1,020 nt of DNA from sequence record OR846541.1; one strand, 5' to 3'. The notes beneath the pieces were generated by a model that saw nothing but the letters and a program-made list of their open reading frames with translations, searched no databases and had not been told where the DNA came from. Both the position numbers and the translations under genes were made by a program. The DNA comes from a phage. Shown one piece after another: positions 1-1,020 of this stretch; within the stretch, counting starts at the first letter, position 1, and each line of letters starts with the position of its first letter.

Positions 1-551
1 GCCCTGCACTCTTCGACAGTCCAGCGATGGCGGTTATGGTTTGATTCGATTTCGTCTACCGCGGCCTGACCGATACGGTTAATAAGCTCGACGCGATACG
101 GAACGAGATTTCCGCTTTTGTGCTGGTTGCACACCACGCATTGCTTGTGAATATTGCGTTCATCAAATCGGAGTTGAGGTGCAGCAGCAGTTGTCCGGTA
201 ATGCCCGGCATCCCACTGAGCAGACGTGAGCGTTCCGCACGAGATACATGGTAAGTCGCGGTCTCTTTCTCTGATGAAGGCGTGTACGGCTTGTTGGGCT
301 TGTTTAATCCAGTAACTGCGGGGCTTTAAGGCGAGTTTTTGAATCTTAAGTTTATCTTTCTGTTTCTGCTCCTCTCGTCGTCGTTTCTTCTCTGCTGCTT
401 TTTCTGCTTTTTCGCGCTCTTTGCTTCGTCGTTCGAGTGCTATCTTGGTTCCACACTCTGGAGAGCACCACCACTGATTAGCGAATGCAGGGTGAAACCA
501 TTCCCGACATTCATCGTTTTTACATCGTCTTCGCGCTGGTTTAGCCATCAT
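1..551 (-). CDS. ninG: NinG / Rap recombination-associated structure-specific endonuclease, N-terminal 183 codons; 3' end lies beyond position 1
   Basis: Minus-strand frame opens with tandem ATG ATG at 546..551 and stays open to the window edge (183 codons plus 2 nt, no stop). Translation: [183 protein letters not shown]... This matches my recollection of lambda NinG (204 aa, begins [15 protein letters not shown]). GAGGA Shine-Dalgarno at 557..561, 5 nt upstream of the first ATG. Not in the supplied ORF track because it is edge-truncated. Confidence 0.92.
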
Positions 552-711
552 CTTTTTCCTCGTGCATCGAGCTATTCGAATCGCTCATCAGCTCTGCGCA
601 GCAGTGCTCACACACGTGAACTTCCAGCACATGCAGCTTCTGACCGCAGTTAGCGCACGTTAAAGCCCGCTCGACGCTTTCTTGTTCGTAACTTCGATTT
701 TGGTCAATCAC
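541..711 (-). CDS. ninF: NinF, small Cys-rich protein of unknown function (56 aa), GTG start
   Basis: Minus-strand frame from GTG 709..711 to TAA 541..543 (57 codons including stop). Translation: (V/M)[55 protein letters not shown]. Matches my recollection of lambda NinF in sequence, length (171 nt) and position between ninE and ninG. GAGGA at 719..723, 7 nt upstream of GTG. Missed by the ORF track because of the non-ATG start. Confidence 0.85.
557..561 (-). promoter_or_regulatory. Shine-Dalgarno (GAGGA) for ninG, embedded in the 3' end of ninF
   Basis: Minus-strand GAGGA followed by a 5-nt spacer and the first of two tandem ATGs (549..551). Confidence 0.55.
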
Positions 712-890
712 CTTGTTTTCCTCGCACGTTCTCTAAGCCACCTGATGTCCCACAGGTGAGCCGTGTAATTAAAGGTTTTTACGTCAGATTCTTTGGGGAT
801 TGGCTTGCGTTTATTTCTTGAGCGTTTCGTTGGAAGGTATTTGCAGTTTTCACAGATTATATCGGTGATACTTCGTCGCTGTCGTGCCAT
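708..890 (-). CDS. ninE: NinE, small basic protein of unknown function (60 aa)
   Basis: ORF given in the supplied track and confirmed by my translation: [60 protein letters not shown]. Matches my recollection of lambda NinE (60 aa, 183 nt). AGGAGG Shine-Dalgarno at 895..900, 4 nt upstream of ATG 888..890. Stop TGA 708..710 overlaps the ninF GTG start. Confidence 0.9.
719..723 (-). promoter_or_regulatory. Shine-Dalgarno (GAGGA) for ninF, embedded in the 3' end of ninE
   Basis: Minus-strand GAGGA followed by a 7-nt spacer and GTG at 709..711. Confidence 0.5.
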
Positions 891-894
891 ACGT

Positions 895-900
895 CCTCCT
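895..900 (-). promoter_or_regulatory. Shine-Dalgarno (AGGAGG) for ninE
   Basis: Minus-strand AGGAGG followed by a 4-nt spacer (ACGT) and ATG at 888..890. Confidence 0.6.
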
Positions 901-924
901 TCGTCTCTGGCCGCGGGAAATTAC

Positions 925-1020
925 CTACTGGCGACCGCTCACATCTGATACACCATTGGTGCCAATAAGGTTGATTTGGCCGGAATCGATAATCGTCTTT
1001 GCTTCATGCAACTCTCCCTG
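925..1020 (-). CDS. 3' end of an upstream ORF (C-terminal 31 codons plus TAG); product not identified, sits where ninD/ninC lie in lambda
   Basis: Minus-strand frame open from the window edge to TAG at 925..927: ...[31 protein letters not shown]. Ordinary codon usage, followed by a 34-nt spacer containing the ninE AGGAGG. I do not recognise the peptide. An alternative overlapping frame exists (see findings), so the call is tentative. Confidence 0.35.

Follow-up and report, generated by a model that had tools for sequence, protein, structure and literature searches.

The window analyzed here, a 1,020-nucleotide stretch of the phage record OR846541.1, is almost certainly an ordinary, already known piece of a lambda-like phage that carries ninD, ninE, ninF and ninG in minus-strand orientation. 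The long open reading frame (ORF) at 339..653 of the plus strand is not a gene but a chance by-product of ninG read backwards. A sequence-only reading of positions 1-890 had assigned their minus strand to ninE-ninF-ninG, and this assignment is borne out by Pfam matches to NinG (280 bits), NinF (47 bits) and NinE (150 bits) that lie far over the gathering score, with which the PHROGs calls (171, 672, 288/32968 and 8091) agree. Alignment of the reverse complement to the lambda nin region, the check called for in that reading, gave 92.8% DNA identity over 1006 nt to positions 41973-42979 of phage lambda (NC_001416 / J02459), and the lambda features under the aligned stretch are NinD, NinE, NinF and NinG/Rap. 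None of the results speaks against these gene identities. The two results that had been named in advance as speaking against the reading were also looked for; the minus-strand translations do match these families, and the plus-strand product matches none. The count of three real genes was right for ninE, ninF and ninG but incomplete, as a frameshifted ninD and the end of ninB are also present; the final 34 nt of the ninD frame fall inside 857..890, and the remainder of frameshifted ninD reaches 1007.

Read as its reverse complement, the window is a portion of a lambdoid (lambda/P22-type) ninR region, from a phage or a prophage, with the gene order ninB end, ninD (frameshifted), ninE, ninF and the first 90% of ninG/rap. 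Substitutions relative to lambda concentrate at the third codon positions of the minus-strand frames (12 of 19 differences in ninG and 10 of 16 in ninE). The best overall DNA matches are the P22-like Salmonella phages BTP1 and P6 (96.1%), followed by vB_ST415_1NRH (95.9% over 1000 nt); matches are held by 527 phage records and by 2216 of 5426 complete E. coli genomes, and none among the records searched matches the whole window above ~96%. A scan of the window against Rfam at E<=1 returned no non-coding RNA. The biology is textbook lambdoid ninR content; all that stands out is that ninD, which is non-essential, has a private deletion that shifts its frame.

The 5' part of ninG (rap) occupies 1..551 on the minus strand and amounts to 183 codons if the first of its two tandem ATGs (at 551 and 548) is taken as the start. 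The frame is open to base 1, in keeping with the earlier statement that the gene runs off the window edge, and with an expected length of ~204 codons its 3' end (~21 codons) lies beyond the window. The Pfam match (PF05766, E=1.2e-83, cut-off 25.4 bits) covers profile positions 1-177 of 193 and is limited solely by the window edge, while PHROG 171, 'NinG/Rap DNA junction specific endonuclease', is matched with E=1.3e-113. A search of solved structures with NinG gave nothing significant (best E-value 0.3). The gene lies directly after ninF, overlapping the ninF stop at 541-551, which agrees with its ninR-region placement in the records compared. Gap-free alignment to lambda NinG shows identity at 176 of 183 residues (96%), the substitutions (lambda residue first) being R71Q, N90H, N130D, S157N, E162A, I179V and K183R, and every Cys and His of lambda NinG 1-183 is retained. 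The Cys/His clusters of NinG, an N-terminal CX4C...CX2C and a CxxC...H...CxxC HNH-like region, are presumably metal or HNH sites. NinG (Rap) is described in PMC4118853, citing Sharples et al. 2004, as a DNA branch-specific endonuclease that resolves Holliday junctions, and the 96% identity to lambda Rap suggests that the NinG of the window would act on branched DNA and Holliday junctions in the same way.

Immediately upstream, ninF is complete at 541..711 on the minus strand (56 aa, TAA stop at 541-543), and its start codon, read at 709-711, is the GTG that had been proposed. Its length falls within the ~56-59 aa typical of the family, and it is recognized both by Pfam (PF05810, E=1.7e-12, 47.4 bits against a cut-off of 27.5) and by PHROG 672 (E=1.1e-34 over 55 of 58 positions). 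The protein is identical to lambda NinF at 54 of 56 residues and shares its length, position and GTG start; as in lambda, the gene sits between ninE and ninG with its start overlapping the ninE stop. NinF carries a CxxC...CxxCC pattern typical of a zinc ribbon and gives weak zinc-ribbon Pfam matches (E ~0.004-0.02), which suggests that it may bind zinc. In the assembly collection, 7351 blocks contain exactly this protein.

The third gene, ninE, is likewise complete, encoding 60 aa at 708..890 on the minus strand with an ATG start at 888-890 and a TGA stop at 708-710. The NinE Pfam profile (PF05322) is matched over its full length (positions 1-58 of 58, E=1.5e-44), and 57 of 60 residues are identical to lambda NinE. 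The assembly collection contains the exact NinE protein in 3681 blocks, and in each of the eight places shown it lies between ninD and ninF. Both exact proteins, NinE and NinF, recur on thousands of public assemblies, and the places shown have the gene order ninD-ninE-ninF or ninE-ninF-ninG; conserved ninD-ninE-ninF synteny is likewise noted in PMC4118853. A published listing (PMC3224144) gives the function of NinE and NinF as unknown; both are small, non-essential proteins.

Neighboring genes of the block overlap throughout. The ninD/ninE overlap is 34 nt, as in lambda; ninE ends and ninF begins within a GTGA at 708..711, in which the TGA stop of the one and the GTG start of the other have bases in common, the same 4-nt overlap that is present in lambda; and the ninG start, whichever ATG is used, falls within the last ninF codons in a ATGATGGCTAA overlap at 541..551 (all on the minus strand). 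The annotated ninG start is the first ATG in lambda (11-nt overlap) and the second in ST415_1NRH (8-nt overlap). A putative Shine-Dalgarno sequence, AAGGAGG at 895..901 on the minus strand, stands 4 nt upstream of the ninE ATG and is invariant in lambda and ST415_1NRH, and Shine-Dalgarno-like GAGGAA precedes both ninF and ninG. Taken together, these overlaps and Shine-Dalgarno sequences would lead one to expect translational coupling along the block. In lambda the nin genes lie between the replication genes (P/ren) and Q and are expressed from the rightward delayed-early transcript initiated at pR, and the viable nin5 deletion removes them. The nin genes also appear as non-essential in a published listing (PMC10695390).

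A scan for transcription signals gave counts near chance: two promoter-like sites in the window (one on the minus strand in ninE and one on the plus strand) against 0.6±0.7 expected, and one terminator-like site, on the plus strand, against 1.7±1.3 expected. The minus-strand promoter-like site is a sigma-70-like match at 885..856, in the 5' end of ninE, combining ACGACA and TATAAT across an 18-nt spacer (10/12). The record of phage O276 (NC_049951) annotates a 'tR3 terminator region' in ninE and a 'tR4 terminator region' in ninG, homologous to window positions ~790-820 and ~280-320, respectively. No hairpin was found in the window RNA homologous to tR3 and tR4 (z-scores of +0.7 and +1.7), and the terminator scan found nothing on the minus strand; if real, these regions are not intrinsic terminators.

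The ninR region of lambda shares the gene order, strand relation and overlaps of the window. It differs in carrying ninC (PAPS reductase) upstream of ninD, where the window has a P22-type ninB end directly upstream, and in having an intact ninD, to which the ninD segment of the window is ~81% identical. ST415_1NRH has the window's ninB-ninD-ninE-ninF-ninG arrangement, with no ninX between ninE and ninF. The nin regions of the P22 / ST104 / S149 type contain homologs of the window's ninD, ninE, ninF and ninG (95.8%), but in ST104 and S149 a ninX (DUF2591 family protein) is annotated under the match, which is split in two pieces, whereas the window lacks ninX. Different segments of the window also have different best matches. 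The ninB end and ninD are closest to Salmonella phage ST415_1NRH (99-100%) and ninE to locus L010 (98.3%); ninF (160 nt at 552-711) agrees at every base (100%) with the E. coli prophage loci L011-L018 but is only 91.9% identical to ST415_1NRH, as to the P22-like Salmonella phages in general; and the 5' part of ninG (339-551) matches the E. coli prophage locus L016 at 98.6% and lambda at ~98%. Such differing matches are the usual lambdoid mosaicism.

The 3' end of ninB (orf) lies at 1004..1020 on the minus strand and comprises the last four codons (...GRVA) and a TGA at 1004-1006. All 17 nt are the same in loci L004 and L006 and at the end of the ST415_1NRH gene that bears the annotation 'recombination protein NinB', and, as in ST415_1NRH, an ATGA joins the ninB stop to the ninD start. 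Since the ninB end abuts ninD, the arrangement is the ninB-ninD of P22/BTP1-like phages and not the ninC-ninD of lambda.

What follows ninB is a damaged ninD. A match to the NinD family (PF17466, E=2.3e-33) at 860..1003 covers profile positions 10-56 of 57, within a remnant that spans 857..1003 on the minus strand, ends with a TAA stop at 857-859 and is 99.1% identical to ST415_1NRH over 113 nt. This remnant lacks a start codon in its own frame, which is not that of the original ninD ATG. The cause is a 23-nt deletion directly after that ATG, with its junction at 1002..1005, where ACACTGCTACCGCTGCGGAGAAA is missing relative to P22-like phages and the end-points are ambiguous over an AA microhomology; in the alignment it appears as a 23-column gap in the window only, and ninD is intact and free of this deletion in BTP1 (NC_042346), P6 (OP265889), vB_ST415_1NRH (PP921804) and P22-like phages. 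The deletion removes the CYRCG codons, which hold the first CxxC of NinD, and shifts the frame, so that the ninD ATG now opens a 22-aa ORF (939..1007, minus strand) and the NinD-like frame is left without a start. The window thus has no intact 57-aa NinD with an N-terminal CxxC, and what it carries is a pseudogene or remnant derived from NinD, which does not count as an intact family member.

Given the frameshift, one or more of the genes in the block must be counted as damaged, and it is possible, if on the unlikely side, that the segment comes from a defective, decaying prophage whose nin genes are no longer expressed or functional. Besides the ninD frameshift, the related E. coli loci L011-L016 are consistent with such an origin, as they carry the block in a rearranged prophage in which exo and bet abut ninE and the immunity and replication genes are gone. 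Against it, there is no damage to ninE, to ninF or to as much of ninG as the window shows; their lengths, starts and Shine-Dalgarno sequences are typical of their families, and they differ from their relatives mostly by silent changes; moreover, the upstream neighbor in the window is a normal ninB end, unlike in L011-L016. In those loci, which lie at ~2100-2830 in sequences from E. coli chromosomes and have the same ninF as the window, exo (YqaJ) and a shortened bet (RecT) stand head-to-head with ninE, and ninD is missing along with the whole immunity and replication region. Their arrangement resembles that of a defective prophage after the loss of a large internal segment, and the window does not share the junction. 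A mosaic junction at ~1004, or a large bet-to-ninD deletion there as in L011-L016, was considered and rejected: those loci diverge from the window at 885, not 1004, and the 17 nt beyond the break are an exact P22-type ninB end.

The 23-nt deletion itself has one of two origins: a mutation private to this phage, in a gene that is non-essential, or a mistake in the source sequence. The second, an artefact of sequencing, assembly or cloning, in which case the real genome would carry an intact ninD with an intact ATGAAACACTGCTACCGCTGCGGAGAAAGC, is improbable without being far-fetched. In its favor, the junction is rare: a 34-mer across it has no match among the genome and viral contigs searched, and a 24-mer has none there or among the metagenome contigs; in the phage and E. 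coli collections no record has an alignment that crosses it, the matches listed in both beginning at query base 15-17; and ninD is intact in all 10 of the other ninD-bearing loci fetched. Conversely, a clean 23-nt loss with 2-nt microhomology is typical of spontaneous deletion, ninD is non-essential (PMC10695390), decay is common among prophage genes, and the collections searched sample the strains of one species thinly. It is very improbable that the deletion is real and that the 22-aa ORF or the loss of NinD has a functional effect (for example on the expression of the downstream ninE-ninF-ninG), or that the antisense ORF encodes a real small hydrophobic protein.

That ORF (339..653, plus strand, 104 aa, TTG start) is the sole plus-strand ORF of at least 60 aa. 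Opposite it on the minus strand are codons 1-73 of ninG and the 3' part of ninF, and its register matches that of ninG exactly, every codon in this stretch being the reverse complement of a ninG codon. Residues 1-70 of NinG include 12 Lys, 10 Arg and 10 Glu, and Lys/Glu/Arg codons read backwards give Phe/Leu/Ser, which accounts for the 20 Ser, 15 Leu and 15 Phe that make up 50 of the 104 residues of the product. An antisense stop requires a sense TTA, CTA or TCA, and the first such codon in ninG is codon 74, with none in 1-73. NinG was also recoded at random, each synonymous codon being chosen according to its frequency in 55 genes of the fetched loci; in 1484 of 5000 recodings (30%) the antisense frame remained open as far or farther, so the length of the ORF is within what chance allows. 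The substitutions within the overlap are equally one-sided. Over 339-548, the window differs from lambda at 4 nt, all at ninG third positions, changing no NinG residue and 4 antisense residues, and from ST415_1NRH at 7 nt, 6 of them at ninG third positions, changing 1 NinG residue and 6 antisense residues; selection acts on the minus-strand frame only. Searches of Pfam and PHROGs with the product gave no match even at E<=1. Register, composition and the absent family match thus concur with the initial view of the ORF as antisense to ninG/ninF, F/L/S-rich and spurious.

A real overlapping antisense gene for a small hydrophobic (Phe/Leu/Ser-rich) protein could point to its 104 open codons, to a frame that is also open over 339-548 in lambda, O276, ST415_1NRH, L003 and L016, and to an AAGG ~8 nt upstream of the TTG, but this reading is already close to refuted and next to impossible, given that the openness follows from NinG composition (of the first 70 residues, just 2 Leu and 2 Ser have the potential to yield an antisense stop) and recurs in the recodings, that the differences within the overlap fall on the antisense residues, that no family is matched, that the start is a TTG and that the annotated records inspected have no gene on that strand.

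How such an ORF came to stand in for the real genes is explained by the way the list was made. The ORF lister accepts ATG, GTG and TTG starts and leaves out ORFs running off the window. At its default 60-aa minimum it returns just 339..653(+) (TTG) and 708..890(-) (ATG), and at a 20-aa minimum it adds ninF ('541..711 - 56aa GTG'); the supplied track was probably made at the 60-aa setting, judging from the exact match of these two ORFs with the reader's description. The supposition that an ATG-only finder of complete ORFs would skip both ninG and ninF therefore holds in part: ninG is missing because it runs off the window edge, but the lister takes GTG and TTG starts and the 56 aa of ninF fall below the 60-aa minimum, and ninF is most likely absent through this length cut-off, not its GTG start. 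In dense phage regions, lists of complete ORFs of at least 60 aa mislead, in that a chance antisense ORF is reported and 56-aa and edge-truncated genes are missed. The value of the exercise is practical, as a correct and useful annotation check on biology long known. Lastly, ninE starts with ATG in the window and in the Salmonella phage and with GTG in lambda (42090), and an ATG-only finder would skip lambda ninE yet catch that of the window.
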